Shown: in pieces, positions 4,252 through 64,000 of the stretch
Layout: each line of letters starts with the position of its first letter
Position numbering within the stretch: the first letter of the stretch is position 1
Source: a bacterium
Lineage (GTDB): Bacteria > RBG-13-61-14 > DATKZS01
Assembly (NCBI GenBank): GCA_963674965.2
Contig: CAXXFL010000006.1
Coordinates: forward strand, 896,001-960,000
Direction of reading: 5' to 3'
Length of the DNA: 64,000 nt
The notes under the pieces: model-generated
Told to the model about the DNA's origin: nothing
What the model saw: the letters and a program-made list of their open reading frames with translations, nothing else
Database searches by the model: none
Position numbers and translations under genes: made by a program

Positions 4252-4325
4252 AGTTTAGTCCTCCTTGTTGCCATGGATTTTTGTGTAATAAAAGTATCCC
4301 ACGGCATGGAGGACTTTTCATTTAA

Positions 4326-17908: not shown

Positions 17909-17915
17909 TAGTGCC

Positions 17916-21299: not shown

Positions 21300-21312
21300 T
21301 CTTAAAACCTCA

Positions 21313-21507
21313 TTATTTGGATTTGATATTCGAACCTTTCCGAACCCATACGTCAATTTCTTCTTTACGGAATTTCCAAAGGCGGCCAACCTTATGAGCC
21401 GGCATGCTCTTGCGAGATATCCACTTATATACCGTGTCCCGCTTTACGCCAAGGTAGGCAGCTATCTCATCCACGGAAAGCCAGCGATCTCCGATGGTGT
21501 CGTTCAT
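21313..21507 (-). CDS. Excisionase-like HTH DNA-binding protein
   Basis: WLSVDEIAAYLGVKRDTVYKWI..PAHKVGRLWKF (HTH_17-type pattern). Confidence 0.9.
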   Translation of the reverse strand: MNDTIGDRWLSVDEIAAYLGVKRDTVYKWISRKSMPAHKVGRLWKFRKEEIDVWVRKGSNIKSK

Positions 21508-21657: not shown

Positions 21658-22206
21658 TTATGGCCAGCTAATTATTCTATGAGTCTCGTGCTTAGTAATT
21701 CCATTGTCATCGAAGATGTAGAGCCAAGCAAGTGATTGGCTGCTCCCTTCGAAGTCTAGAAAAGAGGCAAGTACTCGCTTGTAAGCACCATGGCATCCAA
21801 GCCGAAACCCCTCCAACCGATCAATCGCCGGTAGCCTCACTTCCGGATCGTCGAAGGTCAGAAGTTCCCCCGACACGCGGGCCCAGTCGCCCGTGGGCGG
21901 GTCTTTGGGGAGGAGATGGGGGTGCTGATCAGAGAAGCGCTCCTGGGTGGCCACGTCGGCCAGGGGATCGGAGGTGCCGTGGGCGAGGATGTGCTCGGGG
22001 GGAACTTCGAGGATGGGGATACCGGAGGGGAACTGGTAGAGGCGGCCGATGATGGTGATTGGCTCAATCGAAAGGACTCCTCGACAGAATCGGTCATGAT
22101 TTGCCCGCCCTTTTCGCAGGGTACCGTAAGTGGCCAGGCGGAGCAGTCCCTTTGTGTTCTCCTTCAGGGGATCATGATGGTTCATTGGGGGTACTTCCCG
22201 GTTCAT
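21658..22206 (-). CDS. Gamma-glutamylcyclotransferase (AIG2-like)
   Basis: YGTLRKGRANH, IDRLEG, AWLY; ATGA overlap with upstream gene. Confidence 0.82.
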   Translation of the reverse strand: MNREVPPMNHHDPLKENTKGLLRLATYGTLRKGRANHDRFCRGVLSIEPITIIGRLYQFPSGIPILEVPPEHILAHGTSDPLADVATQERFSDQHPHLLPKDPPTGDWARVSGELLTFDDPEVRLPAIDRLEGFRLGCHGAYKRVLASFLDFEGSSQSLAWLYIFDDNGITKHETHRIISWP

Positions 22207-23000
22207 TGTACTCCTCCCGTCGTTACTTTCATGGACCTTGCCTGGGCCTGGAACGTGAAGCCTTCCCTCGAGTACCCAGAGACATCCTCGAACCTGAACA
22301 CAACCAGGCTCATGGGAGGCAATGGAACCTCGCGCCAACCCCGTTCACCTTCCAGCACCGAATCCAGAAAACCCTTTTCAGAAGCGTAAAGTACGGCCCG
22401 GTGGCGCTTGTTGAAGCATAAGCTGAGGGGTTTATTGCCTTTCAGGACCAGGACGGTACCAGGAAGGCTTCGAGAGCTCATTATCGCGGTAAGCTGCCCG
22501 CGACAGTGTGAGAGCTGGCGCTTGAACCCGTCGAGATCAAGCTGCCCGTTCCTGAAAGCCCTGTTGGCCAGGCGAAAGATGATCTCGCTGTCCACTTCCG
22601 CGTAACGCCTCAGTTTGAACTTGTTAAACAGGTAATTGGCGTTGTAGATGGTCCCATTGTGCGTCCCTATGATCTCTCCAGCGCGGATGGGATGGTTATT
22701 GAGGTTATTGCGTTTGTCGCCGCGCGTGCGCCTGCGGGTGTGGCCGAGCAGCACGGTGGTCTTGTTGTCGATCTCGGAGATGACGTCAAAGTAAGCCTTG
22801 TCGGCGATGAAGATTTCGGCGGGCAGGGGCCGCTTGAATATTTTGTATTCTCCACTCAGCTTCAGCCAGGCGATGCCGGTGGCGTGGGCGCCGCGTTTCT
22901 CGCTGAGGGCGAGCAGGCGCGTGAAGAGCCAGGCGAGGCGCCTGCGCTCCTCGGCTCGCCTTTGTTTCTTGCCGAAGATGATCCCGACCTGGCCGCACAT
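22203..23000 (-). CDS. Class II glutamine amidotransferase
   Basis: N-terminal MCG nucleophile, RGAHATG, GHTR, NNHP, HNG, VDSE. Confidence 0.88.
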   Translation of the reverse strand: MCGQVGIIFGKKQRRAEERRRLAWLFTRLLALSEKRGAHATGIAWLKLSGEYKIFKRPLPAEIFIADKAYFDVISEIDNKTTVLLGHTRRRTRGDKRNNLNNHPIRAGEIIGTHNGTIYNANYLFNKFKLRRYAEVDSEIIFRLANRAFRNGQLDLDGFKRQLSHCRGQLTAIMSSRSLPGTVLVLKGNKPLSLCFNKRHRAVLYASEKGFLDSVLEGERGWREVPLPPMSLVVFRFEDVSGYSREGFTFQAQARSMKVTTGGVQ

Positions 23001-23491
23001 CAGGACTTCCCCCCTTCCACTCGGAAGCCCCGGAACAGGCCCTCGGAGTACCTCGCGCGGTTGGCCTCGATCCACTTGGCGGTCTCGGGGAACCCGAACT
23101 TGCGGGCAAGTTCGACCACCATGGGCCGGTCGAGCATGTGGGTCACTCCAGAGCGCCGGACCACATCGAGTCCTTCCAGGACCACTCGCGGCAAGGTGAT
23201 CGGGCCGCTTTTCTCGTCGTCCACGAACTCGGCGAATCCCGCACTTTCCAGTTCGGTGATAAAGGACTCGGCCATTTCCTCGAGGGACACTCCCTTAATC
23301 TCCAGGTCCTGGCCCGAGAAGCTTCGGATATTGTCGGTGACCATCTTGAGATACTGTTCGAGGTCTACGCCGATAAGCGAGGCCGCGTTCATGGCGTGAA
23401 CGATGTCCAGTTCGGTCTTGCCCTCGAACACCTGGCCATCTCCATCGAGCGGCTCTCCACTTAGTGTCGTGTTCCTTATCAAAATCTTCAT
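23000..23491 (-). CDS. Hypothetical protein with DUF5049-like C-terminus
   Basis: [36 protein letters not shown]. Confidence 0.6.
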
Positions 23492-24429
23492 TGCGCTCCT
23501 CCTTCGACTCTGCTTTGCTCAACCGCTACTGTCTCAGTGGCCTCGTTCCTGGGCCTCGCCTTCTTAAAGGCCGAGTCGCCGGGAAGTCCGGCCAGCAGGT
23601 GTTTACGCGCGGTCTTGAACTCGTCGCCGATGAGACCGAGGTGGAGCAGGAAGACCCGGAAGTCGTATCGCGCGCTCTCGGCGTTGAAGGTCCTTTTCCG
23701 GCTGGAGGCGGCGCGTCCGTTCAGGGCCTTAGCCGCTATGGCCAGGCAAAGCTGGATGTAGGCCTTGACCTTTCCCGCGTGGAGCGTCCCCTCGAACCAG
23801 CGGAACTCGATGGTCCCCCGGTACCAGACATTGTGCAGGTTCACGCCGTGATAGCGGCTGCTGTCGAAGTGGGATGGCTGTCGGTTGTGGTACCCGTACC
23901 AGATCTGGTTCAACTGGTCCTTGGTCCTGGGGCGGCTCTTCTCGATCTTCTTGATCAGGTCTTCGCTCATCGGCTTGGTGTACCGGTTAAGCCTGTGGGT
24001 GGCGACGCCCAGCGCGGTGAGGATAAGCGCCTCCTGCTTGTAGATGATCTTGGCCAGATTCCCGAGGGTGCGTCCGTCAAAGGGCGCGGCGTTCACGTGA
24101 ATATGGATGCCGCATTTCTCGTCGATCTTGGCCCCGCACTTACGGACCGCCCTGATGACCTCCTGCAGGGTCGGGATGTCCTCGTATGAGAGGACCGGGC
24201 TTACGACCTCGGCCCGCAGGCTGAAGGGCACGTTGATGAGCGAGCCGTCCGCCACCACCTTCCAGACGCGGCCCTGGCTGTCCTTCACCTCCCAGGGATC
24301 GAAGCTACCCGGGCTGCCCACGTAAGTGACTTCGCCGCCCACCGCCAACTGGATGGCCCGAGCCACCCTTTCCCGTGTTCTTTTAACCGTCTCGATCTCG
24401 ACTCCAAAGTTTAATTCCCGTAGGTCCAT
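23488..24429 (-). CDS. Putative amidoligase (COOH-NH2 ligase type 2)
   Basis: [43 protein letters not shown]. Confidence 0.9.
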
Positions 24430-24669
24430 GATTCCTCCTTGCTTTCCGTAAGTCGTTGTTCCGTAACCGTTTTTAGTGCTTTGCATGACTCACATGAACG
24501 CTTCTTTCATCTTGGAAAGCAAGTCATTTCTGAAGTAAGTTCGGTCTGGATCCACGGGTTTTTCGGGCGCATGTACATGGCGAAAATACTCGCCAATTAA
24601 CGACGGGTTGCGGCCCGGCCAGGAATCGGGGGCATGGCCAGGGACACCATGAAAGAACACCGGCCCGAT

Positions 24670-39690: not shown

Positions 39691-40914
39691 TTAGAAATTT
39701 CCAAAAGGCCAGGCCATGACTCCCGAACCCAGAGGAAGGGGAGATTCTCCAGGATTGACCACGTAGCCGGGCAGGGCCCCGTCGCCAAAATCCTTCTGGA
39801 AGGTCTTAATCTGGTTCGCCATGGCTGGACGCGGCGTGGCTGAAAGCTTGACCTCGATGGGGACAAGCTTGCTTCCGGTTTCGATGATGAAATCTATTTC
39901 CGTCCCCGCCATGGTGCGCCAGAAATAAATTTCTGGATCAACGCCCCGGTGGGTCAGGGTTTTATATATTTCGGAAAACACCGCCGTCTCCATGATCGCG
40001 CCCCCCATCGGGCCGGAAGCCGCGTGCTCCGGGTCTTTCAATCCGGCCAGATAGCAAAGCGTTCCCAGGTCGGTGAAAAAAACTTTGGGAGATTTGACCA
40101 GCCTCTTTCCCACGTTGGCGAAATAAGGCCTTAGCTCCACCACCTGGAAAGTCGCCTCCAGCACCGAGAGCCAGGCCTTGACCGTGTTCAAGGAAACGCC
40201 CAGGTCGCGGGCCAGTTCCGCCTTGTTGATAAGGCCCGCGCTCCTGGCGGCAAGGAGTCGAAGGAAACTCTGAAACAAAGATAAGTCCCCAACCTGACGA
40301 AGCATCCGAACGTCCCGCTCGAGGTAGGTCTGGACGTAGCCGGCATGGTAAAGACCCGCGTCCCGCTCAGGCCGAGCGGCCAATTCCGGGAAACCGCCTC
40401 GTAGGAAGCTCTTCCATAAATCAAGATATGATTGATTGACGGACAACAAGGCCCCATCGCCGCCCTCCCATGGAAGCCGCGCCTGGGGCTGGCCGAAAAG
40501 TTCCCGACGAGAAAGAGGCAATAAGCGAAGGATGGCCGCCCGACCGGCCAGGGACTCGGTAATTTCCTCGATAAGAAGAAGGTTCTGAGAGCCGGTGAGG
40601 AGGTATTGGCCATATCTTCCCCGGTCCGCGTCGATTTTTTCCTTTATATAAGGGAGCAGATCGGGCGCGTACTGGACCTCGTCGAAAATCACGGGAGGAG
40701 CGTTCAATTCAAGAAAGGAGCGAGGGTCTTCCCTGGCCGCCGCCCACACGTCGGGCGGTTCCATGGAAATATAACGATAATCGTTTCCAAACAAATGCTT
40801 AAGCAGCGTTGTCTTGCCCGATTGACGAGGCCCGGTCAGCACCAGGGCGGGGAACTCCTTCACCGCTTTTTTAAGGACCGATTCCAACGACCTCTCGATA
40901 TAATTATCAACCAT
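39691..40914 (-). CDS. AAA+ ATPase with DUF4143-like nuclease-fold C-terminus (moron)
   Basis: GPRQSGKTT, IFDEVQ, LTGS, ESLAGR, GGFPE, KSPKVFFTDLG, EIDF..IEVK. Confidence 0.9.
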   Translation of the reverse strand: MVDNYIERSLESVLKKAVKEFPALVLTGPRQSGKTTLLKHLFGNDYRYISMEPPDVWAAAREDPRSFLELNAPPVIFDEVQYAPDLLPYIKEKIDADRGRYGQYLLTGSQNLLLIEEITESLAGRAAILRLLPLSRRELFGQPQARLPWEGGDGALLSVNQSYLDLWKSFLRGGFPELAARPERDAGLYHAGYVQTYLERDVRMLRQVGDLSLFQSFLRLLAARSAGLINKAELARDLGVSLNTVKAWLSVLEATFQVVELRPYFANVGKRLVKSPKVFFTDLGTLCYLAGLKDPEHAASGPMGGAIMETAVFSEIYKTLTHRGVDPEIYFWRTMAGTEIDFIIETGSKLVPIEVKLSATPRPAMANQIKTFQKDFGDGALPGYVVNPGESPLPLGSGVMAWPFGNF

Positions 40915-40984
40915 GGAGAGCACCCTTGGTTAATATTATGCATTTTAAGTGCAATTTGTCAAGTTTAAAATGGGCATGGTCCGA

Positions 40985-50766: not shown

Positions 50767-51630
50767 TTATCCGAGGAGCCTGATCTTGGCCAGGATTTCA
50801 GGGCGCGTCACGCCCTGGCCCTGCTCCGACCAGATCAGCCAGCCCGTCTTGAACTTGAGCTTCTGCTCGATGGCCTCGGTCTTGAGCGTCTCCCGCACCG
50901 GGAGCTTGCCGTATTCCTCGTCGGGGATGATGAGAATCTCGTCCAGAGGGGCCGCCGCCGTGAGCAGGATGCCGCCGGTGCCGTAGTTCTTGATCAGACC
51001 CTTGGCCCGAAGCTCGAGCTTGGTCTGAGGGTCCAGGTCCCAGCCGCGCATGTCGTTGAAACGCCGGCCCCGCATCACGATGTATTTCACCGAAAGCTCC
51101 ATGTCCTCGATGATCGAGACGGCCTCGTTGAGGGCCTCCTCGGTGAGCGCGTTCCCGGTCACCTCGACCGTGTTCTCGGCCGGGATAGCCGCCGTGATCA
51201 CGCTGAGCGTGCGCTTGTCGATTTCCTTTCTGATTTCATCGGCCGCCGCCGTCTGCATGTCCGTCAGCGTTCCGATGTTCCCGTGCTTCAACACCGAGAT
51301 GTCGACCATGGGAGCGGAATGGATGCGGTGAGTGGGGAACTCGACCTCGTCCTTTCCCACCTCGGTCTCCTGGGCCTCGCCCTCCTTGCTGATCCAATAG
51401 GCCTTTACCCGGGGCTTTTTCTGGTAGACCGGGCGCTCGCCCTTGGGCAGAGTGTGCTTGGTCAGGAGCAGCGAGGATATCTCCTTGCGCTTGATCTCCT
51501 GCTCGATGGGAGCCGCGATGGCCGCCGCCAGCGCGTGCATGCCCTCGGGGGATTCCAGGGCCTCGCTCATGAGCCTGGCCATGGTCTCCATGTATTCCTG
51601 GCTGTGTACGTTCATCAGGTTCGAATCCAT
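50767..51630 (-). CDS. Major capsid protein (compact HK97-like fold inferred)
   Basis: AYWISKEGE, ADEIRKEID; position after scaffold and decoration genes; strong RBS. Confidence 0.72.
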   Translation of the reverse strand: MDSNLMNVHSQEYMETMARLMSEALESPEGMHALAAAIAAPIEQEIKRKEISSLLLTKHTLPKGERPVYQKKPRVKAYWISKEGEAQETEVGKDEVEFPTHRIHSAPMVDISVLKHGNIGTLTDMQTAAADEIRKEIDKRTLSVITAAIPAENTVEVTGNALTEEALNEAVSIIEDMELSVKYIVMRGRRFNDMRGWDLDPQTKLELRAKGLIKNYGTGGILLTAAAPLDEILIIPDEEYGKLPVRETLKTEAIEQKLKFKTGWLIWSEQGQGVTRPEILAKIRLLG

Positions 51631-51643
51631 TTGCGCTTCCTCC

Positions 51644-52006
51644 TTAGATCAGCAGCCTGAACTTGACCAGTCCGTCCGATACCGAGATGGCCCTGGCGAT
51701 AACTTCCTCACCGGCAGCGACGCCGGAGGTGAGCTTGCCATTGCCCGACACCTTGAGGTCGTCGCCGGGATTGATAACCCCCTCGAAGACGTCGGTCTCG
51801 TAAATCCCGCCCATGCAGTAAACGCCGGGCATCTCGCCGTCCTTGTAGTCGGTTATAAGAAGGCCGAAGGACTTCTGCGTCGGATCGGTGTTCACCGCGA
51901 ACAGGTCGCCGCCCACGATCCTCACCACCTGGCCCCTCTGGCCCTCGCCCTGCATGTAGCCGTCGCCGTATGCCAGGCCTCGATGACACGGATTGATGTA
52001 AGACAT
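51644..52006 (-). CDS. Putative capsid decoration protein
   Basis: Gly-rich 120 aa (GIYETD..PGDDLKVSGNGKL) between scaffold and capsid. Confidence 0.6.
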   Translation of the reverse strand: MSYINPCHRGLAYGDGYMQGEGQRGQVVRIVGGDLFAVNTDPTQKSFGLLITDYKDGEMPGVYCMGGIYETDVFEGVINPGDDLKVSGNGKLTSGVAAGEEVIARAISVSDGLVKFRLLI

Positions 52007-52023: not shown

Positions 52024-55000
52024 TTATTTCGCCTCGGCGGACTCGCCGGTGTTCGAAGACACCCGGTTGCGGTAAGCCGCCATGAACCCGGCCTTGAGCT
52101 TGTCCTCAAGCGTCTCCTTTTTGTCATCCACGTCCTTGGGCCGCACCCCGGCGTCACTGCGCATGGGAGGTTCCTGGTCGGATTTCTCGGCCCTGGATTT
52201 TTCCTTGTCGGCGGGAGGGTCTTCCTTCTTTTCGGTCTTTGCCTCGGCCCGACCCTTGATCATCCGCTCGTAGGCGGCCTCGGTCGCGGCAAAAGCGTCG
52301 TCGGTCATTTCCGCCAGACGTTTGAACTCGGCTTCGCGGTCCTCGTCGCTGTCGAAGGCGAGTCCCTGCTTTTCCAGCTTGCGGACGAGTTTCTGCGCCC
52401 GCGAACGGTTGGCCGCCGCCTGCTGTTCAGCCTCGAGTTCCTCGACCCGTTTCTGGAGAGAGGCAACCTGCTTCTTCAGTTCGCCGTTCTCCTTTTCCAA
52501 TTCCTTGATTCGGGTCTTGTCGTCGGTGGAGCCGCCACCTCCGCCCTCGTCCTGTTCTTCTTCCTTGCCTTTGGCGGCCTCGGCCCGCTCGTCTTTCTGC
52601 TTTTCCTTCTCGTCCATGGATGGACCTCCTTTTTCATGGTTTTCGGTTTCCGCGTCGTCAATATCCGCTACCTGGGTTATCCGCGCGTTCTCGTCCGCTC
52701 CCTTCCGGTCAAGAAGGCCCAGCCCGGTAAAAGTCACCCCATGCAGAATTTCGTACACGGGCTTTCCCTGGAATGAGCCTCCCTTGTTCTTCCGCAAATG
52801 AATGCAGTAGTCGGTCTTGTTCCTGACCTTCTTCCCGCACACCGAGCACTCGCCCTCCTCGTAATCGCACTCCATCGATACCTGGGTGATGATCCCGCGC
52901 TTCATCAGCTTGTAGGCCAGCTGGGCGTTCTGGCTGTCACCGGTATAAAGCTCTCCCACGCATTCGACCCGTCCGCCGTTCTCGTCCTCGATGAAGTCCG
53001 CGCCCACGATGCCGCCCACTATGTCGGTGAAGTCCTGCGAGTGCTTCAGGTCGATCTTCTTGTTGATAGCAGTCATGTATCTGGTGGAAAGCTCTTCCGG
53101 AGTGAAGTGGTCGCCGTTCTTGTTGGTCCCGGCCCGGCACAGCACGAAGGTGAATTGGGGGTCTCCGACGTGGTTGCCCATGTCGAGGGCCTCGGTGAAT
53201 AGTTCCTCAGACTCCATGATCTCGATATCGACCGGGACCGTTGTGTGGCAGGCTGCGGCGGACAGCGCCCCCTTGGAACGGGGCGCGCTCCTGGCCTTCG
53301 AGGCCACGAACAACAACTCCTTGGCGTGCTTGCCTTCCCGGCCTATGTCCTTGGCGATGTTATAGTCGACTTCCAGGCCGCTGACCTTGACCTGCCCGAA
53401 ATGATTGCCGAAGATTTCCTTGATCTCGTCCTCGCGGGGGAAGGCCCGGTCCCGGTAGGAGAGGAGAACTGCCCCGTACTTGCCCCGGGCGTCCGATGCC
53501 ATGGTCGTCATCAGTTCCCTGATCGACTCCTTGGTGTACTTCGTCCGGGAAGGGAAACTGCGCCTTGGGTTCGAGCCGATCTTCTTATCGGCCCAGCGGG
53601 TCATCAGCCCCTCCACGAAATGAAGGGAATCCTCGTAATCGTTCGACCCGAACTCCGTGACATAAGGCGGGTCCAGGTAAAGCACGTCCGCGCTGTAGCG
53701 CCTTACCGCCTCCGACGCCTCAAGGTTCGTGGCCTTGCATTCCTCCCCGTTGTCGAACACCAGGTTGTTGAGTTGATTGACCGAACGCCTGAAGGACTCG
53801 ATAAATTTCTTGAGAGGAGGGTTGGAAAGCTGCGACTGCTCCAGGCTGGCCTCCGCTTCCAGGTCCGCTTTCCGCTGCATCTTCGAGCGAGAGAACTGGC
53901 CGAAGGCGCTCTTGGACTTGACCGTTGTCCCCAGCGCCGCCAGCGCCAGATCCTTCTTGTAACCGGAGAGCTTCTGGATGTTGGACCACACCTGGTCGAG
54001 CCACTGGAGCACTGGCCTGGTGTAGTAATAGCCGTAGAAATGGTCCGCGATGAACGTGCCCGCGCCCGGATTGGGGGCGAGAAGCATGTCGATGTCCTCG
54101 TCGGTAAGTTTTTCGCTCGAATTCTCGACAACCGCCCGGGCCAGGTGGTGAGGGTACCTCAAGAGGTCATTGGCCATGACCTTGTATCCCTTTCGCTTCA
54201 GGTTGTAGGCCACGTTGGCCCCGCCCGAAAAAGCGTCAAGCACCGTCTTCGTGCCTTTGGGTATGTGGCTGTCGATCCAGCCCATCATGAGGTACTTGCT
54301 GCCCATGAAACCGGTGACCCGCACTGGGCCGCTTTTCCCGGCCACGCAACTTAAAAGGTCCACGGCGTCATCGAGAGGAGCATCGGCCAGAGCCCGCATG
54401 TTCTCCTCGATTCGCAAGGCCGCCTCGGCCGCCTGCTCGGACTCGTGCTTATCGATCCATTCCCTGGCCTTCTCCTTGCTCCAGCCGTCCGGAGTGTCAT
54501 CGGTCTTTCTGGCGAAACGATAGGCCTGGAGCACCATGCACTTGGGGTCGTGGCCTTCCTGGACGTGTTCTTTCTTAAGCCTCCCGACAATGATCGTGAC
54601 TCCATCCACTCCCTCGAGCGGCTTGGTTCGGAAGCTGTCCTTCTCGAACTGCTCGGGATCGCGCACCCGGTACCGGATCTCATTGTCGGTCTCGTCCCAG
54701 ATGGCCTCGGTATCGAGTTCGCCCTCTGCCCTGTCCTCCAGTGATGCCGCTGCTTTCTGGTCGGCCTTGCCCCGCTTGCAGATGAACAGCCGCTCCTTGG
54801 CGTGGGAGGCGTCACCGTGACGCGAGGTAATCGAGTAATGGTGATCATGCGAGCGCATGGTCGAGTCGTGCCCAAAGGAACTGATGATCCGCTTCATGTC
54901 CTTTTCGTTCGGGTAGGCGTGGTCCCGGTAGGAAATGAGCCAGTGAGGTATGTGCTTGGCCGCGCCCAGGAAGCCCTCGAAAAACTTGTTGGCGTTGGCC

Positions 55001-55899
55001 TTGGTCACGGTTATGTGGTCGGTCTCGTAATGTTTGGTCTTCGAGTCATCCTTGATCGTGAGCCCTTCCCAGTAGGTCATTAGGCCCTCGATAAAGTGAT
55101 AGGACTTTTCGTAGTTCGTGGTCGAAAACTCGGTGGCGTAAGGAGGGTCGAAGTAGACAAGGTCGACCTTCACTCCTGGGAGCAGTTCGTTAACATCCTT
55201 CCGGAATGCCTTGCAGTCCTTGCCGTTGTCGAAAACAAGAGCGTTGATCCGGGCTGCGTTCTTTTTGAAACGCTCCTTGAACTCGTCCGGCGAGTCTTCC
55301 CGCTTGCCGTACCGGGTCGAGGACGAGAAATGCCCGAACCCGCCCTTTCCGGACATGCAGGTTTTGCCCAGGGCGAAGAGCGCTATGTCCTTCTTGTAGC
55401 CGTCCAGCTTGTCGATATTGGCCCTGATGGTGTCGATCAGTCCGTGGACCCCGTTGGCGAAGAAGATTCCCTTGAACTTGTCCCGAACAAAAGTCTCGGC
55501 CTTGGGGTTGTCCGAAAGGAGCATCTCCAGGTCCTCGTCGGAGAGCCGGACCTTCTTGTTCTCGATAATCGCCCGCGCCGCATGGAAGCAGTAGCGCAGC
55601 CGGTCGTTGGAGATTACCCGAAGTCCCTTGGTCTTGTACATATAGGCCACCACCGCCGAGCCGGAGAAAGCGTCCAACGCCGACTCCACGCCCTCCGGTG
55701 TATGCTTCCAGATCCAGTCCACCAGCTTTTGCTTGGAGCCGATGTAGTTGGTGATGTACTTGGGACGCTTGCCCGGGGGAAGTTCGTCTTGAGAAACTTC
55801 CCTGGCCTGGGCCTCGAGTGCTTCGAAGTCCAGGTTTAGTGCCGCGTCGGTCTCCAGCAGGAAGGCCAACCGTTCGAAATCAGTGGCAAAAATTTCCAT
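52024..55899 (-). CDS. Fusion: two D12-class (FokI-like) adenine methyltransferases + small domain + prohead protease-like domain + scaffold
   Basis: YIGSK/DAFSGS/YFDPPY; FMGSK/DAFSGG/YLDPPY; NKNGDHF..IDLKH..VSMEC..CSVC..CIH..FTGLGLL..GAD; charged coiled-coil tail. Confidence 0.85.
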   Translation of the reverse strand: MEIFATDFERLAFLLETDAALNLDFEALEAQAREVSQDELPPGKRPKYITNYIGSKQKLVDWIWKHTPEGVESALDAFSGSAVVAYMYKTKGLRVISNDRLRYCFHAARAIIENKKVRLSDEDLEMLLSDNPKAETFVRDKFKGIFFANGVHGLIDTIRANIDKLDGYKKDIALFALGKTCMSGKGGFGHFSSSTRYGKREDSPDEFKERFKKNAARINALVFDNGKDCKAFRKDVNELLPGVKVDLVYFDPPYATEFSTTNYEKSYHFIEGLMTYWEGLTIKDDSKTKHYETDHITVTKANANKFFEGFLGAAKHIPHWLISYRDHAYPNEKDMKRIISSFGHDSTMRSHDHHYSITSRHGDASHAKERLFICKRGKADQKAAASLEDRAEGELDTEAIWDETDNEIRYRVRDPEQFEKDSFRTKPLEGVDGVTIIVGRLKKEHVQEGHDPKCMVLQAYRFARKTDDTPDGWSKEKAREWIDKHESEQAAEAALRIEENMRALADAPLDDAVDLLSCVAGKSGPVRVTGFMGSKYLMMGWIDSHIPKGTKTVLDAFSGGANVAYNLKRKGYKVMANDLLRYPHHLARAVVENSSEKLTDEDIDMLLAPNPGAGTFIADHFYGYYYTRPVLQWLDQVWSNIQKLSGYKKDLALAALGTTVKSKSAFGQFSRSKMQRKADLEAEASLEQSQLSNPPLKKFIESFRRSVNQLNNLVFDNGEECKATNLEASEAVRRYSADVLYLDPPYVTEFGSNDYEDSLHFVEGLMTRWADKKIGSNPRRSFPSRTKYTKESIRELMTTMASDARGKYGAVLLSYRDRAFPREDEIKEIFGNHFGQVKVSGLEVDYNIAKDIGREGKHAKELLFVASKARSAPRSKGALSAAACHTTVPVDIEIMESEELFTEALDMGNHVGDPQFTFVLCRAGTNKNGDHFTPEELSTRYMTAINKKIDLKHSQDFTDIVGGIVGADFIEDENGGRVECVGELYTGDSQNAQLAYKLMKRGIITQVSMECDYEEGECSVCGKKVRNKTDYCIHLRKNKGGSFQGKPVYEILHGVTFTGLGLLDRKGADENARITQVADIDDAETENHEKGGPSMDEKEKQKDERAEAAKGKEEEQDEGGGGGSTDDKTRIKELEKENGELKKQVASLQKRVEELEAEQQAAANRSRAQKLVRKLEKQGLAFDSDEDREAEFKRLAEMTDDAFAATEAAYERMIKGRAEAKTEKKEDPPADKEKSRAEKSDQEPPMRSDAGVRPKDVDDKKETLEDKLKAGFMAAYRNRVSSNTGESAEAK

Positions 55900-55978
55900 T
55901 CAGTTCTCCGGTAGCGGGCTTCTCACAAGTCCTGCCTGTAAAATTTGCGTGGGCTTGAATGAAGCTCCTATAGGTTAC

Positions 55979-56005
55979 ATACCGGAAACGAACTAAAAGT
56001 GTCGG
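55979..56005 (-). promoter_or_regulatory. Putative phage late promoter, copy 2 (CCGACACTTT-N10-CCGGTAT)
   Basis: Same motif and spacing as 39551-39577; 80 bp upstream of the methyltransferase-protease gene. Confidence 0.65.
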
Positions 56006-56024
56006 AAAAAAGTTGAAGAAAAAT

Positions 56025-56080
56025 GAAAAAACGACCCCCTCGCCACGTTCGGCAAAAAGCCTACTTGCCGCGAGGGGGTC
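56025..56080 (-). terminator. Possible intrinsic terminator of the DGR transcript
   Basis: 11-bp IR GACCCCCTCGC (56033-56043) / GCGAGGGGGTC (56070-56080) followed by a T run on the minus strand. Confidence 0.5.
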
Positions 56081-56198
56081 TTTCATATTCGGCCCGGCAA
56101 AATACCGGCCCGGGAAGGGGGCCAGGACTGATGGGGCTCGCTCCCCGGGAAATACTCCCGAGGACTCCGGCCATGCCTCCACGTCTCCGTGAAGGAAC

Positions 56199-56324
56199 TC
56201 AGTCCCCAGCACAACGGAATCCTATGTTGTTGTTCTGGTTAGTAGGCGTATTGTTGTTCCGGTTTGCTACGCGCAGGTTGTTCGTATTGTTGTTCCAATT
56301 GCCGCCGCGCAAAACGCGATACGT
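56199..56324 (-). ncRNA. DGR template repeat (TR)
   Basis: 126-bp ungapped match to 57825-57950; 14 Asn (AAY) codons in the target frame; overlaps the RT stop codon by 1 nt. Confidence 0.96.
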
Positions 56325-57400
56325 TATCGGCCACCCTCCCCAATCACGAATACAAACGATGGCAGCATTTGCGCTCTGAGTTTGTAGCTGTCGGCATAGG
56401 ACGCGTGAGACAGCCATGAAGTAACCGAGGCACCGATCTCCGAAAGCGCGACCTCGCCTCTCGAATATTCATCCTGCAACCGCCTCATCCTGGCCTTGAA
56501 GCGTCTGACGTTTTCCTTGCGCACCTTGGTCATGTGCGGCAGGTGCCTGAACCCGAGGAACTCCACTCCCTCCTTCACCGTGTATATCCTGCTCTTACCG
56601 TCATGGATTGAAAGTCGAAGCCCGGCCAGGTAATCGACCACCGCGGACCTGATCTCGTTCAGCCGATTCTTGTCGTCGCCGAAGATGCAAAAGTCGTCCA
56701 CATAGCGGACATACGGCCCGGCCCTGAGCTCCTCCTTAACCCAGTGGTCGAAGTCATTTAGGTAAAGGTTGGCGAAGAACTGGCTGGTCAGGTTGCCCAC
56801 CGGGATGCCGCGTCTCCTTTCATGCGGCGTGAACAGGCCGTCGCCGGGGTAGTAAATGATCGGCCCCTTGTCATTGAAACAGCGCGAGCCGATGATCTCG
56901 GAAAGCAGCCACATCGCGTCCCGGTCCGCGATCCTGCGCGAAAGTTTCCCGATCAGTATCTCGTGGTCAATGCTCTGGAAATATTTGCGGATGTCGCACT
57001 TGAGCACATACTTGTGGCGCTTGAGGAACTCCCGGAATCGCATGAGCGCTGCATGCGTGCCCTTGCCCTTTCTGCAGGCATAGCTGTCGGGGATGAAGCT
57101 TTTATCGAACAGCGGTTCGATAATATTGGTCACCGCGTGATGGACCACCCGGTCGCGATAGGGCGCGGCAGAAATCAGCCGCTTCTTTGCGTCCTTGACA
57201 ATGAAGTCGTGGTACGGGCCGTGATGATAGATTTTATGTAGCAGTTCGTCATGAAGCCGAAACAGGTTCCTCTCCAGGTCCATGTTGAAAATGAGCGTGC
57301 TCTCCCGGTAGCGCTTGCCATTCTGTGCTTTTTTGGAAGCCAGCAAGAGGTTCTGAAAACTCGCGATCTCGGGGAAGATGTTTTTGAAAGTCTTGGCCAA
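56324..57400 (-). CDS. DGR reverse transcriptase
   Basis: [46 protein letters not shown] (DGR-type SQ), RYVDDF, FLG. Confidence 0.96.
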
Positions 57401-57409
57401 TACTCCGCC

Positions 57410-57754
57410 TCACGTCTTCTTTGCCGCCTGCTTGCGCCAGCCGCCCACCTGGCTGCCAAGCTCGGTAATCATCTTCATCACGTGCTCGTAGCCCTTGTTG
57501 GAAAGAGCACCAAGGTCACGGCTAAGGCGAAGAAGAAAGCGAAGACGCTCCAGCCGTCGATTTGCTTCATCAAGCAGGTGTACTTTATCACGACGATATG
57601 ATGCCTCTGTTAAAATCTCAAGAATCGAAAGGCAATTGTCCACGATCCTCTCTCCGAGCGAATACTTAAGATCTTTTGGAAACTTTGAAACCCTTGGCAA
57701 AACCTCTTTGCACAGATCATACGCCTTTTGAACAGCGGGAAGTTCTTTCTTCAT
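57410..57754 (-). CDS. avd: DGR accessory variability determinant (four-helix bundle)
   Basis: 114 aa basic; KAYDL..FPK..KYSLGERI..LRFLLRLS..ELGSQVGGW; directly upstream of RT. Confidence 0.92.
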   Translation of the reverse strand: MKKELPAVQKAYDLCKEVLPRVSKFPKDLKYSLGERIVDNCLSILEILTEASYRRDKVHLLDEANRRLERLRFLLRLSRDLGALSNKGYEHVMKMITELGSQVGGWRKQAAKKT

Positions 57755-57766
57755 TTTTAAAAATTT

Positions 57767-57794
57767 TTTAATGGGGGCTTACGCCCCCATTAAA
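57767..57794 (-). promoter_or_regulatory. DGR target-recognition hairpin/cruciform downstream of VR
   Basis: Perfect 12-bp stem TTTAATGGGGGC/GCCCCCATTAAA with 4-nt loop (GTAA on minus strand), 30 nt after the target stop. Confidence 0.8.
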
Positions 57795-57824
57795 GTGTAA
57801 GAGTTAAAAAGGACAAAAGAGTAA

Positions 57825-57950
57825 TCAGTCCCCAGCACAACGGAAGCCTATGAAGACGCTCTGGGCAGTAGGCGAAAGGTTGTACCGGTTCGCCACGCGC
57901 AGGGTGCCCGAAGTGATGTGCCAACCCCCGCCGCGCAAAACGCGATACGT
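57825..57950 (-). repeat. DGR variable repeat (VR)
   Basis: 24 differences from TR, 23 at TR adenines; 14 amino-acid changes. Confidence 0.96.
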
Positions 57951-59138
57951 ACCTGACGCGGGACCGGGAGGATCGTTGGTGGGACTTGTACTGTAGTAAT
58001 CGCTCTGATACCAGTCGTTGACCCATTCATAAACATTACCCCCCACATCATAAAGACCGTAACCATTAGCAGGATAGCTTTCAACCTCGCTGGTATCTCC
58101 AATACACCAATCGTAATTTGCGTCAACACATGCTGTAGCTGTATCTCCCCAGGGATAGCGTTTGCCGGACAGGCCGCCACGGGCAGCGTACTCCCACTCG
58201 GCCTCGGTGGGCAGTCTCTTGCCCGCCCAGGCGCAATAGGCCGTGGCCTGATTCCAGTCAACCCAGATAACAGGAAAATTGTCATAGGTCGGATTACCGT
58301 AATAAGAGCCGCGAGAATAACTTGAAGAATAGCCGGGCGCCGTGCATCCCCCTCCGCTCACGCAAGCCGCGTACTCCGAGTTGGTCACCTCATGAACGTC
58401 CATGTAGAAGTCCGAGGTGATGCAAACGTTATGCACCGGAAGTTCATCGCTGCTTCCCTCGCTGAACGCGTCGCCCATGTTGAAACAGCCGGAGGGGATA
58501 AGGGCCATTGGGCCGACAGTGCTTCCTCCCTGGCAGTCAGGGTCATCACCGTCGATCTTGCCGTCGCAGTCATTATCGAAACCGTCGTCACAGACTTCGG
58601 CCGCGCCGGGGTTTATGGAGGCGTCGACATCGTTGCAATCCGTGGTGGCCGTGGCCCCGTCAACGACCTTTGAGTAACCGTCCCCGTCGTAATCGCTCTT
58701 ATTGTAAAAGGCCGTAAGCCAGCCTCCTTCTACCTTCAAGGCATAAGGCACGCTGGCGATCCTGGACCGGGGCGACATCTCGCCATCGCTTTCAACCTCG
58801 ACTCCCATCCACACGTCCTGGTGGTTCTGGAAGACAGCGGAGAGGCTTGGCTCGGTACCCGGCGTTACCGTGCCCGAGCCGATGAGAACATTATAAAGCC
58901 CGCCGGTGACCGCCACGTCCTCCTGGAGAACGGTCAGATAAGCGGTCCCGCCCGTTTCAACACCATAAAACGCGAACGTCAGATCAACGGTAGACCCGTC
59001 CGCAAGAGGCTGGCCTGCAGAGTTCGTGAGCCGCCCCTGGTAATTGATAAGCTGCGGAGCGGACTGCGCCCAGGCAATGCCCACCACCACGGCCATAACA
59101 AAAACACCAACCAACGCCATTCCAATCTTAGCCCTCAT
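57825..59138 (-). CDS. DGR target: signal peptide + beta domain + MopE-like Cys/Asp motif + FGE-sulfatase (CLec) domain
   Basis: MRAKIGMALVGVFVMAVVVGIAWA-QS; INYQGRL; DCND..INPGAAEVCDDGFDNDCDG; F.MG..E.PVH, EVTN..Y, RLPTEAEWEYAARGG, GNVYEW, RGG.W..GFRC. Confidence 0.93.
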   Translation of the reverse strand: MRAKIGMALVGVFVMAVVVGIAWAQSAPQLINYQGRLTNSAGQPLADGSTVDLTFAFYGVETGGTAYLTVLQEDVAVTGGLYNVLIGSGTVTPGTEPSLSAVFQNHQDVWMGVEVESDGEMSPRSRIASVPYALKVEGGWLTAFYNKSDYDGDGYSKVVDGATATTDCNDVDASINPGAAEVCDDGFDNDCDGKIDGDDPDCQGGSTVGPMALIPSGCFNMGDAFSEGSSDELPVHNVCITSDFYMDVHEVTNSEYAACVSGGGCTAPGYSSSYSRGSYYGNPTYDNFPVIWVDWNQATAYCAWAGKRLPTEAEWEYAARGGLSGKRYPWGDTATACVDANYDWCIGDTSEVESYPANGYGLYDVGGNVYEWVNDWYQSDYYSTSPTNDPPGPASGTYRVLRGGGWHITSGTLRVANRYNLSPTAQSVFIGFRCAGD

Positions 59139-60040: not shown

Positions 60041-63000
60041 TCACCTCGCAATCACAATATCCTCGACCTTGCGGCCGTCGGGAAGTTTCACGATACCCTT
60101 CTTGCGGAATGAATCCAGTATCTTTTTCCGCTCGTTCTGGCTCCCGACCACGATGACCTCGATGTTGTCCAAGAGCGTCACCGAATACTTGAATATGGTC
60201 TCGTTGCCGCTCTTCTTCGCGAACCTTTTCCACTCCTCGGGAGTGCTGCCGCGATGCCGCGTCACGTAGTCGTCCACCACTTTGCCGTAAGCGTCATGGT
60301 CGTAACTTATCGCGTCCATCCGGCGCAGGAGCCGCTTCTTGAAGTACAGCCCGGTTTCGCCCGGCCCTCTTTCCGGCACCTTCTTTATCCGCGTGAAAAA
60401 GTAGCTTGCTCCGCCGGTTCTCATGTCCTCTTCGGGCGACATTCCTCCCACCGGGACCCCGGCCCGCAGTTTCTCGACGGTGCTTACCGCCGCGCCGTTC
60501 TGCTCGATCACCTTGTCGAGGAATGAGGACACGCTCTCTCCATTGGTGAGGTGGTGATGGAGCGCATAGCCTTTCATCTGCTTCTCCAGGTCCTCGTCCG
60601 AGATATCGAACCGGTATTGATGCCTGTAACCGGCGCTTTTGCCGGGCTGCTTGAACGCCAACTGGTGCTCGCCGATGGGATCATAACCCGGCATGCGAGT
60701 CAGGTCTTTCACGCCCAGGCGTTTTTCCCAGAACGACCGCATCTCCCGGACACGGACTTCCTTGCTCGCGGACCGCCGATCAAGGTCGGCGACTATCTTC
60801 TTGTATGCCGCGTCCTTGTCTACCTTGGACAGATAAGCCTGCTTGTGAAGGTAGAGCAGTTCGGCGTCCTCGGCGGTAGCCGGGGTGGAGTTGAGTCCAA
60901 GGCTCTCCATGTGCTCCATCGCCCGCTCCATGCTCTTCGCGTCCGGGCGATCCGGCAGAACTATCTCGAACTCGCCCCGCTGGGCATAGAGGTTCTTCTC
61001 CGACCAGGGGCGGTACACGGCCTTTATGCCGTCGCCGAAGTCAACTTCGTACTGCTCGCCAGCCTTCATGCTGTGGCCCTTGAACATGGCGGAATTGTCC
61101 GAGTTCTCGTTCACCACCACCAGGTCGCCCTTCTTCAGTTCGCGTTTCTCGTGCAGGACCTTCGAGCGAGTAACCTTGAAACCCGCGTCCTTGGCCTTAG
61201 CCGGGCGAGGCGATTCGTGCTTCTTGGTATAGGCACCGAACATTTCATTTATCGGCTTCTTGGCCCGCTCGGCATCCTCGATCTTGGAGAGCCAGGCCAG
61301 GTACTCGTTGGCCATGCCCCGAACGTCTGGGTCGCTCGACTGGGCCAGCTTCTGGAGCGCCTTTTCGTAGCCCTTGGCCTTGTTCAGCTTGTCCTGGTTG
61401 TACTTCTTGTCGTCTTTGTGGTGGTTGATGGTCTTGGCGGCGGCCAGGATGTCATCGGCGAACCGGTCCTCGGGCAAGGTGTCGCCGACCTTGGTCGAGG
61501 CGGGATCAATCCCGGCCTTCTTGAGCGCCTCCAGGATTTTCGCGTCGGCCTCGGGCCGGACCTTCATTTTGACCACGGTCCGCTCCTTGCCCTTGGCTTT
61601 TTCAACGAAAATGAGAGCGTTCTGGTCCTCGATGTCATCTTCGTCAATGGGAAGCGCTTTTCCCTGCCAACCAAGGCGCCTTACTTCCTCGATTAATTTT
61701 TCATCCTCCGGACCGAGGCGTCCCTTTTTGGCGATAGGTTCAGCCGCGTCCTCGAAACGGAACCCCTTTTTGCCAAGGACGTCTGAGTAGAAAGATTCGA
61801 AGTCGCGACGAAGGTTGCGCTTTCGATCCAGGGCCGTCTCGTAAAAAGCCTTCTTTTTCGCTTCGTCCTTCCCGAACCGGCCCTCGACGTATGGGCGCAG
61901 CATATCCAGATAGTCGTCATCCGATATTTTTTCGACTTCGCGGATGTACTTCAGCGTGACGGAGGGGTCGGGTTTAACCTTGCCTTGCTTGGCCGCCCTG
62001 AAGACCGCGTTGTAAAAAGGCTCCTGCTCGCCGAACTTCTGGTTCGGGTGATAGTCGATGGAAAGCTTGTCCTCGCCCAGGTGCTTGAGCAACTGCCCTT
62101 TGTCGATGCCGTAAATCTTGCCGCTCCTGGAGCGGAGGAACTGCTTGGAGTGGCCGTCGTGATTAGAGATGAGCCAGTCGATCACGTGCTCGCGCTGGAT
62201 CTGTTCAAGCTCAAGGGTGGTGAGGTCGGTGGGGTCCATGCCCGAGAAGTCGATCTTGGACTGAAGGTCGGTGCGCCATTTCTGGATCGAGCCGAGCTTT
62301 CCCTTGAGTCGAATGGTACGGACTTCGATGGCGTCAGGATCGATCATCCGGGCGATTTTGTAAGCGGCCTCCTCGCCGTAAGCGATGAACTCGTCGCCTG
62401 ACTTCTCGACCGGTTTGAACATCCACTTGTCGCCGTTCTCGTCGGTCCAGAATTCCTTGCTGTGAGCGCCTCCCACCTGGGCTTTCCCGGCGGGCTTGAA
62501 CTTGCCCGCTTTCCTTTTTGCCTCCCAGGCCTTGTCCGCATCCTCGAATTCCGATCCCTTCTTGGTGAAGGTCGGCTTTGCCACTGGTTCAGGCTCGGGC
62601 GGAGGCGGGGCTTTTACCTCGGGTTTCGGTTTCGATGCTTTCTTCTTGCCGCCGTGTTTCTCGGCCCAGGCGGCATGCTTTTCCTCGATGGCTGCCTTGG
62701 CCGCTTCGACCTTCTTTGGATCGGTCTCGCTGAACAGGGTGACCAGTTCATCCTTGTTCGCCCACTGCCAGTGCTTGAGCTTGGTGTCCTTGGCCAGGGT
62801 CTTGAGGTCGCCCACCTTCATGCCCGCCAGTTGCTCCTGAAACACCTTCTTCTTGAGCGCCAGTTCCTTGGCATGTGATTCAAGCATCTCCTGCGGCAAA
62901 ACACCGCCTTCTTCGAGCGCGGTTTCTGCATCCTTAACCGCCGCCAGGAAGTCTTCGTATTGGGTGGGCGACTTGGGCAGCACAACCTTGGCAGATGACT

Positions 63001-64000
63001 CTTCCACGCTCTCCTTGGCTTTTTTGATCTTCTCCTTGGCGGCGGTCTCGACCGCCTCCTTCTTTGCTTTCTCGGCAAGTTCCTGGCCGGCGGATTTCTC
63101 GATGGCCTTGGCGAGTTGCTCCTTGTTCTTGAGCGGCCCGATGTGATGCTTTTTCTTGGCCGCCATGAGGTCTTTTCCCTGAAGGCCCGAGTGGTCGATG
63201 CCAGGCTCCAGTTCATCCAGGAGATCGATCACGTCCTGCTTGGTCATATTGAGGGAGATGCCCTTTTCCTTCGCCATCTCCTTTAGCTCCGCCGCCGATA
63301 AACCCTGCAGTCCCTTTGGATCGGGAATCTTCTTCAACTGTTCGGCAACCTGCTGGGCCTGCTTGAGCGCAGATTGTTTCTCGGCCAGGAGCTTGACCAG
63401 TTCTTCCTTGGTTCTTAGAAGCCCTATCTTGTGCTGCTTCAGCTTTGCTTTGAGCGCCTGGCCTGACAGGTCCGAGTGGTCGATGCCGGGTTCTGCCTGA
63501 TCCAGTAGCTTGATAAAGTCGGATTTGGTGCGGGCTATGGAAACGCCGTTCTGTTTGCTAAGGGCCTGCAACTGCTTTGAGGTAAGGGCTTCCAGATCGC
63601 CGATCCCTCCCTTTTCGAATGCGGCCTTCAGCTTGGCGTCCTCGGTTGCTTTGGCCTTGGCTTGTCCCTCGATGGCTTGTGGCGGGAGGATGCAGGCGGA
63701 AGGTTCATCGGCCGCCACCGCGCCCAACTCTCCACCGCAGATTTTTAAAGGCCAGGCCGGGAGGTTGCTGCAGCGACAATTGGGGTGAGCGGGTTGCTGT
63801 GGGAAGCGGTCGATGTCATAAGTCTTGCCGTCGAGTGGACCGCACACAGGACATACCCGCTCGTCCTCCATGGTCATCCATTCGAGCTTTCGAACGCCAA
63901 CGTGCTTATGGAACTTGATCCTCCCCTGGTTGTGAGCTCGCAGTACTTCGGTCCGGGCTATGACCTCCATCCGGTATTGGGCCTTGCTGAACACCTTCGA
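60041..64000 (-). CDS. MuF/SPP1 gp7-like minor head protein with long C-terminal extension (5' end outside window)
   Basis: IARTE..W....DERVCPVC..HPNCRC; five helix-extension-helix-like repeats; kinase-like WMFKP..E..DWLISNHDGH..IDKG; C-terminal LHHHL..VST..YFFTR..NETIF. Confidence 0.85.
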   Translation of the reverse strand, partial: SKVFSKAQYRMEVIARTEVLRAHNQGRIKFHKHVGVRKLEWMTMEDERVCPVCGPLDGKTYDIDRFPQQPAHPNCRCSNLPAWPLKICGGELGAVAADEPSACILPPQAIEGQAKAKATEDAKLKAAFEKGGIGDLEALTSKQLQALSKQNGVSIARTKSDFIKLLDQAEPGIDHSDLSGQALKAKLKQHKIGLLRTKEELVKLLAEKQSALKQAQQVAEQLKKIPDPKGLQGLSAAELKEMAKEKGISLNMTKQDVIDLLDELEPGIDHSGLQGKDLMAAKKKHHIGPLKNKEQLAKAIEKSAGQELAEKAKKEAVETAAKEKIKKAKESVEESSAKVVLPKSPTQYEDFLAAVKDAETALEEGGVLPQEMLESHAKELALKKKVFQEQLAGMKVGDLKTLAKDTKLKHWQWANKDELVTLFSETDPKKVEAAKAAIEEKHAAWAEKHGGKKKASKPKPEVKAPPPPEPEPVAKPTFTKKGSEFEDADKAWEAKRKAGKFKPAGKAQVGGAHSKEFWTDENGDKWMFKPVEKSGDEFIAYGEEAAYKIARMIDPDAIEVRTIRLKGKLGSIQKWRTDLQSKIDFSGMDPTDLTTLELEQIQREHVIDWLISNHDGHSKQFLRSRSGKIYGIDKGQLLKHLGEDKLSIDYHPNQKFGEQEPFYNAVFRAAKQGKVKPDPSVTLKYIREVEKISDDDYLDMLRPYVEGRFGKDEAKKKAFYETALDRKRNLRRDFESFYSDVLGKKGFRFEDAAEPIAKKGRLGPEDEKLIEEVRRLGWQGKALPIDEDDIEDQNALIFVEKAKGKERTVVKMKVRPEADAKILEALKKAGIDPASTKVGDTLPEDRFADDILAAAKTINHHKDDKKYNQDKLNKAKGYEKALQKLAQSSDPDVRGMANEYLAWLSKIEDAERAKKPINEMFGAYTKKHESPRPAKAKDAGFKVTRSKVLHEKRELKKGDLVVVNENSDNSAMFKGHSMKAGEQYEVDFGDGIKAVYRPWSEKNLYAQRGEFEIVLPDRPDAKSMERAMEHMESLGLNSTPATAEDAELLYLHKQAYLSKVDKDAAYKKIVADLDRRSASKEVRVREMRSFWEKRLGVKDLTRMPGYDPIGEHQLAFKQPGKSAGYRHQYRFDISDEDLEKQMKGYALHHHLTNGESVSSFLDKVIEQNGAAVSTVEKLRAGVPVGGMSPEEDMRTGGASYFFTRIKKVPERGPGETGLYFKKRLLRRMDAISYDHDAYGKVVDDYVTRHRGSTPEEWKRFAKKSGNETIFKYSVTLLDNIEVIVVGSQNERKKILDSFRKKGIVKLPDGRKVEDIVIAR

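Follow-up and report, generated by a model that had tools for sequence, protein, structure and literature searches.

In phages lambda (genes C/Nu3) and Mu (genes I/Z), the head maturation protease is encoded upstream of the scaffold protein in one reading frame. The scaffold is also made from an internal start, and the C-terminus that both products share takes the protease into the procapsid. A gene of related layout can be found in a 64,000-nucleotide stretch of bacterial DNA (positions 896,001 to 960,000 of contig CAXXFL010000006.1, assembly GCA_963674965.2; this whole stretch is called the window below). Here the protease and scaffold are preceded in the same polypeptide by two DNA methyltransferases. 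The architecture of the gene and the scaffold gene nested within it make it very likely that a temperate myovirus uses this gene for its prohead protease and scaffold, and that the gene has gained enzymes as N-terminal cargo.

Proteins can be brought into phage heads by several routes. The internal proteins of T4 and the C-terminal tail of the HK97 protease act as capsid-targeting tags, by which foreign proteins can be carried into proheads and then freed by the maturation protease. The P1 protein DarB is a methyltransferase of another type than those described here, fused to a superfamily 2 (SF2) helicase, and other Dar proteins help to load it. According to the main text of a survey of polyvalent proteins (Iyer et al. 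2017, PMC5512222), DarB is an adenine methyltransferase of the virion head, held to protect incoming P1 DNA in cis. The polyvalent proteins themselves are described there as beads-on-a-string chains of many domains, with genes that lie among those of the virion, and with MuF, portal and other domains as their anchors.

The open reading frame (ORF) in the window is initiated by ATG and is free of internal stops; the original prediction, which was made from the letters of the window, had described it as uninterrupted. It occurs as a single copy in the 6.5-Mb, 7-contig genome (C6:948027-951899). Its parts are listed here, with residues numbered in amino acids (aa).

52024..55899, minus strand: the full-length gene, 1291 aa, encoding methyltransferase 1 (MT1), a small domain, methyltransferase 2 (MT2), the prohead protease and the scaffold (ORF and domain searches)
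54745..55764, minus strand: MT1, a predicted D12-class N6-adenine DNA methyltransferase, aa 46-385 (PF02086; motif I at aa 76, DPPY at aa 251)
54385..54717, minus strand: small beta-plus-helix spacer domain of ~110 aa, ~aa 395-505 (predicted fold and relatives)
53260..54327, minus strand: MT2, a second predicted D12-class methyltransferase, aa 525-880 (PF02086; motif I at aa 555, DPPY at aa 743)
52660..53169, minus strand: core of the prohead (capsid maturation) serine protease, with the T4 gp21/herpesvirus assemblin fold, aa 911-1080 (predicted structure)
53041..53043, minus strand: codon of the invariant His953, candidate catalytic His (alignment of relatives)
52876..52878, minus strand: codon of the invariant Ser1008, within SMEC, candidate catalytic Ser, 55 residues past His953 (alignment)
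52798..52869, minus strand: cluster of Cys1011, Cys1018, Cys1021, Cys1032 and His1034, presumably metal-binding (alignment)
52624..52631, minus strand: internal Shine-Dalgarno sequence AAGGAGGT, 6 nt ahead of the ATG of Met1095 (DNA of the window and relatives)
52024..52617, minus strand: nested in-frame scaffold gene, Met1095 to stop, 197 aa, aa 1095-1291 (conserved Shine-Dalgarno sequence and start)

An artefact of assembly or frameshifting can be excluded because the fusion is conserved among database proteins. A word-index search with the full protein matched 442 of them (E <=0.001), and the full-length forms with two methyltransferases are 55-80% identical. The order methyltransferase, small domain, methyltransferase had been proposed earlier and is confirmed by the domain searches. 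The boundaries given at that time (~aa 47-373 and ~aa 527-866 for the methyltransferases, ~aa 910-1073 for a protease-like part) agree with those listed above.

The two methyltransferases are recognized by their family and motifs. Pfam family PF02086 (MethyltransfD12) matches two stretches of the ORF (E 9.2e-45; 153.8 bits, with the cut-off at 22), and MT1 and MT2 share 38% identity (E 2e-79; aa 46-387 aligned to 525-879). Both contain motif I in the form D-x-F-x-G-[SG]-[GA] as well as a DPPY motif, and two xPPY motifs are present in 120/120 homologs among the matches listed. Canonical Dam is distant: TIGR00571 gives 27.1 and 24.6 bits, well below its curated cut-off of 114.85, which places both domains outside that family. 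Searching the sequences of the PDB with MT1 and MT2 returned no close relative of solved structure. Judged by family and motifs, MT1 and MT2 are Dam-like adenine methyltransferases of the D12 class. They are also orphans, as gene scans of the window found no nuclease gene adjoining them.

The small domain between them was modelled with a predicted local distance difference test (pLDDT) score of ~90 in its core (residues 16-105 of the folded piece). Among solved structures its best match is a BRX domain (Z 5.0), which is unconvincing, and in the Atlas it matches solely unnamed viral clusters (<0.9). In a viral structure library, it resembles parts of viral proteins that are 414-472 aa long (E 3.9e-4 to 0.08, probability 1.00), one of which is named as a prohead protease. 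Because of these matches, the small domain looks like an accessory of prohead proteases. In relatives it is also found directly ahead of the protease, as one or two copies.

The protease is far more apparent in predicted structure than in sequence. The match of aa 881-1100 to phrog_18299 ('head maturation protease') is weak (E 0.002), and a PDB sequence search with the protease piece gave nothing beyond chance zinc-finger rows. In the phage collection, the protease part is 30-34% identical to gp19 of Bacillus phage G and to a 'capsid maturation protease' of a Gordonia phage. Because this evidence is weak, the structure of aa 881-1110 was predicted with 27 relatives. The resulting model has a mean pLDDT of 82, with values mostly >90 in the core (aa 911-1080). 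In a structure search against representatives, the top match is T4 gp21 (5jbl_A; Z 11.5, root-mean-square deviation 3.3, 132 residues aligned), followed by the proteases of varicella-zoster virus (1vzv; Z 10.7) and human cytomegalovirus (Z 8.2); unrelated barrels reach Z <=7.5. The best rows from Foldseek are again assemblins and gp21 (E ~0.01, probability 1.00). As modelled, aa 911-1080 have the prohead protease fold of the gp21/assemblin type, a fold on which the original prediction depended.

Within this domain, His953, Ser1008, Cys1011, Cys1018, Cys1021 and Cys1032 are invariant in 28 aligned sequences, and His1034 is nearly so; His/Ser motifs and a cluster of cysteines had been pointed out earlier in the single sequence. 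The spacing of 55 residues between the candidate catalytic His and Ser is probably equal to that of gp21. From the alignment, the Cys4-His cluster presumably binds a metal. The protease gene is located in the head module, beside the capsid gene.

The scaffold part begins with an acidic and Gly-rich head, continues with a coiled-coil region and ends with a conserved C-terminal motif; Pfam coiled-coil matches in this region are all below threshold. In the DNA of the window it is preceded by AAGGAGGT-N6-ATG. The nested scaffold gene that starts at this ATG had gone unmentioned in the original prediction and is newly recognized here. Its start was surveyed in 62 distinct viral-contig proteins, which represent 76 IMG/VR loci and the window. 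AGGAG or GGAGG followed by ATG is present at the equivalent site in 57 of the 62. The remaining proteins have GGAGG with GTG (three), GGAGG with TTG (one) or just GGAG (one), so that the internal start is kept in 61/62. On genome contigs, 59 loci were surveyed, 56 of them with an intact ORF, and the signal is found in 55 of these 56 (53 ATG, 2 GTG).

The residues encoded at the internal start vary between relatives (EKGGPSM, PKGDPTM, PEGDSTM, EGGNDSM, KGGSSV), though the Shine-Dalgarno letters stay, and the start codon alternates between ATG, GTG and TTG. This combination is predicted for a translation start, not for a constraint on the protein. Each gene contains 11-32 in-frame ATGs, and the sole other recurrent match to a Shine-Dalgarno sequence falls on a conserved methyltransferase motif, EGLM, and is accounted for by the Glu-Gly codons of that motif. 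A scaffold of 197 aa is very probably made on its own from Met1095. A conserved in-frame internal start with a ribosome-binding site, heading the scaffold part, is the arrangement found in nested protease/scaffold genes.

No comparable start is found for the protease. The linker that joins the last methyltransferase to the protease was scanned for start codons (ATG, GTG or TTG) behind even a loose Shine-Dalgarno sequence. Of 67 distinct linkers, 57 have none, and the starts of this kind in the other 10 lie at no common position. A separate start for the protease was rejected for lack of conservation across these linkers. Gene scans of the head module from portal to capsid also revealed no second candidate for a prohead protease or scaffold. 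Since the sole protease found there is fused and without its own start, the methyltransferases would be expected in procapsids. The protease must work inside the procapsid, and the methyltransferases attached to it should therefore enter as well, unless they are cut off earlier. The idea that methyltransferases enter the head is strengthened by these three features taken together: an internal start for the scaffold, none for a free protease, and no other protease.

With clustering at 50% identity, 16 or more clusters keep the fusion, and its modules occur in several orders, which were determined by domain-wise BLAST. The commonest form on viral contigs is MT1-protease, with ~800 aa and 72-76% identity to the MT1 of the window. 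Other orders with MT1 are MT1-MT2-protease, MT1-small-MT2-protease (the form in the window) and MT1-small-small-protease. Orders without MT1 are small-MT2-protease, small-protease, small-small-protease and protease alone; MT2 without MT1 is found in a single relative (P0250). Two proteins, P0132 and P0204, were rejected as stand-alone short forms and look like frameshifted fragments.

A profile-free search with the protease only gave 1043 representatives at the 50% clustering level. Among the nearer ones, 29 have the protease away from the N-terminus: PF02086 lies ahead of it in 16, no family in 10 and inteins in 3. The original prediction had suggested a survey of homologs for swapped N-terminal cargo. 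In this near clade, the survey found solely D12 methyltransferases and the small domain. In more distant relatives the protease is N-terminal, and among 25 long proteins of this kind no Pfam family was found as swapped cargo in 24, with an intein in the other. Four distant protease relatives (P0295, P0316, P0332, P0312) have intein or LAGLIDADG insertions in or beside the protease domain. In the genome collection, the gene is found in 2 of 13 genomes of the window's phylum. One Bryobacterales metagenome-assembled genome (MAG) carries four copies on its chromosome (L099-L102), and Desulfosarcina alkanivorans PL12 has a copy with two methyltransferases and one with a single methyltransferase (L092, L127).

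A mechanism that would make use of this arrangement can be outlined as follows. The gene would give two products, an abundant 197-aa scaffold from the internal start at Met1095 and a rarer full-length protein of 1291 aa with the same scaffold C-terminus. During assembly of the procapsid, the full-length protein would join scaffold and capsid protein, so that the protease would be carried in as lambda gpC or Mu gpI are, with two Dam-like methyltransferases covalently attached. Activation of the protease would then lead to removal of the scaffold and to cleavage within the linkers. The methyltransferase domains, ~40 kDa each and on that account too large for the capsid pores, would stay in the head with the DNA. 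On infection they would be ejected into the next host and would methylate the incoming genome ahead of its restriction enzymes, as P1 DarB does. They may also modify phage DNA in the cytoplasm late in infection, prior to assembly. This capsid-cargo function, from loading through the shared C-terminus to proteolytic release, retention, ejection and anti-restriction, is inferred, and is favoured with slightly better than even confidence.

Several points count against the cargo function. On aa 881-1100, the Pfam family Peptidase_S78 scores 15.2 bits, short of its threshold of 21. An active protease might degrade the methyltransferases, or free them before assembly. Many loaded copies, with 890 aa of cargo each, would by estimate fill a noticeable part of the head volume. 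Some relatives are protease-scaffold proteins free of methyltransferases (P0221, P0159, P0195), from which it follows that the cargo is dispensable for head assembly. A protein search of the phage collection matched 10 records, none covering the fusion, and found no cultured phage relative. Finally, membership in a late operon could by itself explain a need for late methylation.

In a first alternative, the enzymes act late in the cytoplasm only. The fusion would then be incidental and would do no more than couple the making of methyltransferase to the expression of head genes: replicated DNA would be methylated before packaging, any copies in procapsids would be destroyed by the protease or inert, and nothing useful would be ejected. 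Many phages have orphan Dam-like methyltransferases that do their work ahead of packaging. The conserved catalytic motifs of both domains, the position of the gene within the late structural operon and the relatives without methyltransferases are all consistent with such a role. However, co-expression requires no fusion, yet the fusion persists in the 16 or more clusters despite the shuffling of its modules, and the protease never has its own start. As the main alternative, a purely cytoplasmic role is considered possible, but rather unlikely.

A second alternative concerns the specificity of the two enzymes. In M.FokI, two D12 domains of one chain serve the two strands of an asymmetric site. 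The original prediction cited this enzyme, and by analogy MT1 and MT2 would serve one asymmetric site, one strand each. One homolog cluster (P0118) is in fact automatically named 'Modification methylase FokI'. The analogy is weakened by the relatives: single-MT1 forms dominate on viral contigs, an MT2-only form exists, and the modules vary in order and number. MT1 and MT2 are, moreover, just 38% identical. Because the modules are shuffled and occur singly, two independent specificities fit better, and a pair of the FokI type is judged improbable.

A third alternative, also raised in the original prediction, is that the enzymes are tethered at the inner wall of the capsid and modify the DNA during packaging, which would protect every genome. 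The same architecture would support it, and the sequence gives nothing to distinguish it from ejection. It requires S-adenosylmethionine within the shell as well as access to DNA that condenses fast, and we know of no precedent; its probability is accordingly rated as quite low. Least probable of all is a structural, non-catalytic role as DNA-binding internal head proteins that condense or position DNA: the domains would sit within the head beside the DNA, but motif I and DPPY are kept in both (xPPY in all 120 of the matches listed), and the heads of related phages assemble without them.

The gene is found under record titles of many phyla, including cultured isolates and closed genomes. By record title, cultured and non-pathogenic carriers include Desulfosarcina alkanivorans PL12, Syntrophus buswellii DM-2, Desulfofustis glycolicus DSM 9705 and Ectothiorhodospira shaposhnikovii DSM 243. 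Among loci L078-L136 on genome contigs, DNA identity reaches 96-99% between records titled as different phyla (e.g. L135 vs L127, L085 vs L082), in comparisons that covered ~5-7 kb per locus. The one-methyltransferase locus of E. shaposhnikovii is 97.0% identical in DNA to that of D. alkanivorans over 5385 nt, and 96.6-96.8% identical to those of D. glycolicus and Desulfobulbus rhabdoformis DSM 8777. The two-methyltransferase locus of S. buswellii is 98.4% identical to that of a Nitrospiraceae MAG over 6846 nt, 98.8% identical to that of a Phycisphaerae MAG, and 91.8% identical to that on a Zixibacteria MAG chromosome. An Anaerolinea MAG is also among the near-identical partners (96-99%) of the Syntrophus locus. 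The copy in the window is more distant, with 74-80% protein identity.

These DNA identities suggest that one phage lineage has spread between phyla very recently, although misassembly or contamination is also possible. Misbinning was rejected as a cause of the similarity between isolate genomes. The lineage might eject its capsid-loaded methyltransferases as an anti-restriction kit that eases entry into very distant hosts, which would explain the near-identical loci. This extension is speculative and is held to be doubtful.

The genes around the fusion belong to the head module of a prophage. The features of this region are the following.

51644..52006, minus strand: conserved 120-aa gene, probable head decoration or cement protein (family match to DUF2190/Phage_cement_2, as a lead only)
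50767..51630, minus strand: HK97-fold major capsid protein, 287 aa (NF042927, E 8.9e-84)
60041-64000, continuing into L137:1-612, minus strand: giant MuF-like minor head protein, ~1520 aa, phrog_6577 (Phage_Mu_F domain near the N-terminus)
56199-59138, minus strand: complete diversity-generating retroelement, directly upstream of the fusion ORF (gene and repeat scans)
57825-59138, minus strand: target gene of the retroelement, with an FGE-sulfatase/C-type-lectin-like domain (family match)
57410-57754, minus strand: Avd of the retroelement (gene scan)
56324-57400, minus strand: reverse transcriptase of the retroelement (gene scan)

From portal to capsid, the module consists of the portal, the giant MuF-like protein, two small ORFs, the retroelement, the fusion gene, the 120-aa gene and the capsid gene. 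The order MuF, orf221, fusion gene, 120-aa gene, capsid, neck and sheath is kept across the viral loci; of the 76 loci, 70 have the 120-aa gene as a neighbour, 69 have MuF and 67 have the capsid gene. The scaffold tail and the adjacent decoration and capsid genes had all been described in the original prediction, and they hold in every part that was tested. The capsid protein presumably has no delta domain and depends on a separate scaffold, which would be expected from its short length (287 aa).

Upstream of the window are genes for the portal, large terminase, late activator, primase, helicase, a Sak4-like annealing protein, exonuclease and sigma factor. Because of this gene set, the prophage is an ordinary terminase-portal myovirus. 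A transposable phage like Mu was rejected on the presence of terminase, portal, primase, helicase and Sak4; a transposase family was found in 0/17 upstream ORFs scanned. In the C-terminal >1000 aa of the giant MuF-like protein, family scans found no family apart from a Rho_N-like motif. This protein may be a second multidomain protein delivered by the capsid.

The template repeat of the retroelement (56199-56324) is 81% identical over 126 nt to its variable repeat (57825-57950), which lies at the 3' end of the target gene. None of the 76 related viral loci has retroelement genes, so the element can be regarded as an insertion into the head module of this prophage. Between the template repeat and the start of the fusion ORF (56024-56080, minus strand), a GC-rich hairpin, GACCCCCTCGC ... 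GCGAGGGGGTC with a run of T after it, was seen by eye. It is overlapped by an ORF of 110 aa (55880-56212), which has no family match and may not be a gene.

Other genes of the prophage and its surroundings can be mentioned briefly. The tail module contains a gene for an AAA_14/DUF4143 ATPase (39691-40923, minus strand) that matches the candidate defence family PDC-S01 of PADLOC (E 1.5e-113). At the tail-fibre end (21658-24486, minus strand), there is a trio of amidoligase (PF12224), glutamine amidotransferase-like and GGACT-like genes. The prophage is adjoined by a defence-like island (7402-21389, minus strand) with a Type IIG restriction-methyltransferase (14534-18142; PDLC03628, 1064 bits), an HKD+Snf2 helicase (17916-21389), a STAND NTPase-like protein (8289-11765) and a PsyrA/DprA-like protein (12904-13554). 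Transposase genes of the IS110, ISL3 and DDE types are located at 1269-5576.

The fusion has so far been named after its methyltransferases. Homologs are called 'DNA adenine methylase' or 'Modification methylase FokI' in their source records, none of which mentions a protease or scaffold, and PHROGs holds the single-methyltransferase form as phrog_27806, named just 'DNA methyltransferase'. A literature search of listings and abstracts, with subscription journals not covered, found no description of a methyltransferase-prohead protease fusion. Protease-scaffold genes of the nested kind are already known, as are anti-restriction enzymes carried in capsids; what does not appear in searchable papers is a natural fusion that would use the protease-scaffold as a handle for loading enzymes. 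If the cargo function is true, this would be a simple, genetically encoded way to pack enzymes into HK97-type capsids, a second and independent answer to the problem that P1 solves by DarB, and a possible factor behind the unusually wide spread of the prophage lineage. As the gene is carried by cultured strains, the cargo function is directly testable.

Compared with lambda C/Nu3 and Mu I/Z, the gene has the same succession of protease and scaffold in frame, with a conserved internal start at Met1095. It differs in the ~890 aa of enzyme cargo (two methyltransferases and the spacer) ahead of the protease and in the Cys4-His cluster. Sequence similarity to lambda or Mu proteins was not seen, though no search aimed at it was made. 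With T4 gp21, HK97 gp4 and the assemblins, it shares the predicted fold and a position beside the capsid gene; its invariant His and Ser, 55 residues apart, are candidates for the catalytic residues. Its sequence similarity to these proteases is marginal, and it differs from them by the insertion of the putative metal cluster and by its long extension at the N-terminus.

M.FokI likewise has two D12-class domains in one polypeptide. In the window there is no adjoining nuclease, and the domains are single in close relatives and fused to head-assembly modules. As with capsid-targeting tags, the cargo would enter the procapsid by means of a sequence that binds the shell or core, and the maturation protease would then release it. 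The tag in this case would be the whole protease-scaffold, and the cargo would be natural.

The polyvalent proteins, as described in the main text of PMC5512222, also combine several effector domains per chain among virion genes, in variable order and with methyltransferases among the effectors, and the window protein matches them in this. Domain searches of the ORF found none of their anchors or hubs (MuF, portal, MPTase, ArdC, or a methyltransferase-helicase of the DarB type), and its anchor would be the protease-scaffold instead of MuF or portal. The word 'scaffold' is absent from that main text (0 times) and 'prohead' appears once, although the figures or supplementary architecture lists might include such a fusion.

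P1 DarB is the working model for the proposed function, in which the window protein would likewise be an adenine methyltransferase carried in the head. The window protein differs from DarB in that its enzymes belong to the D12 class and have no helicase, and in that they would be loaded through covalent fusion to the protease-scaffold.

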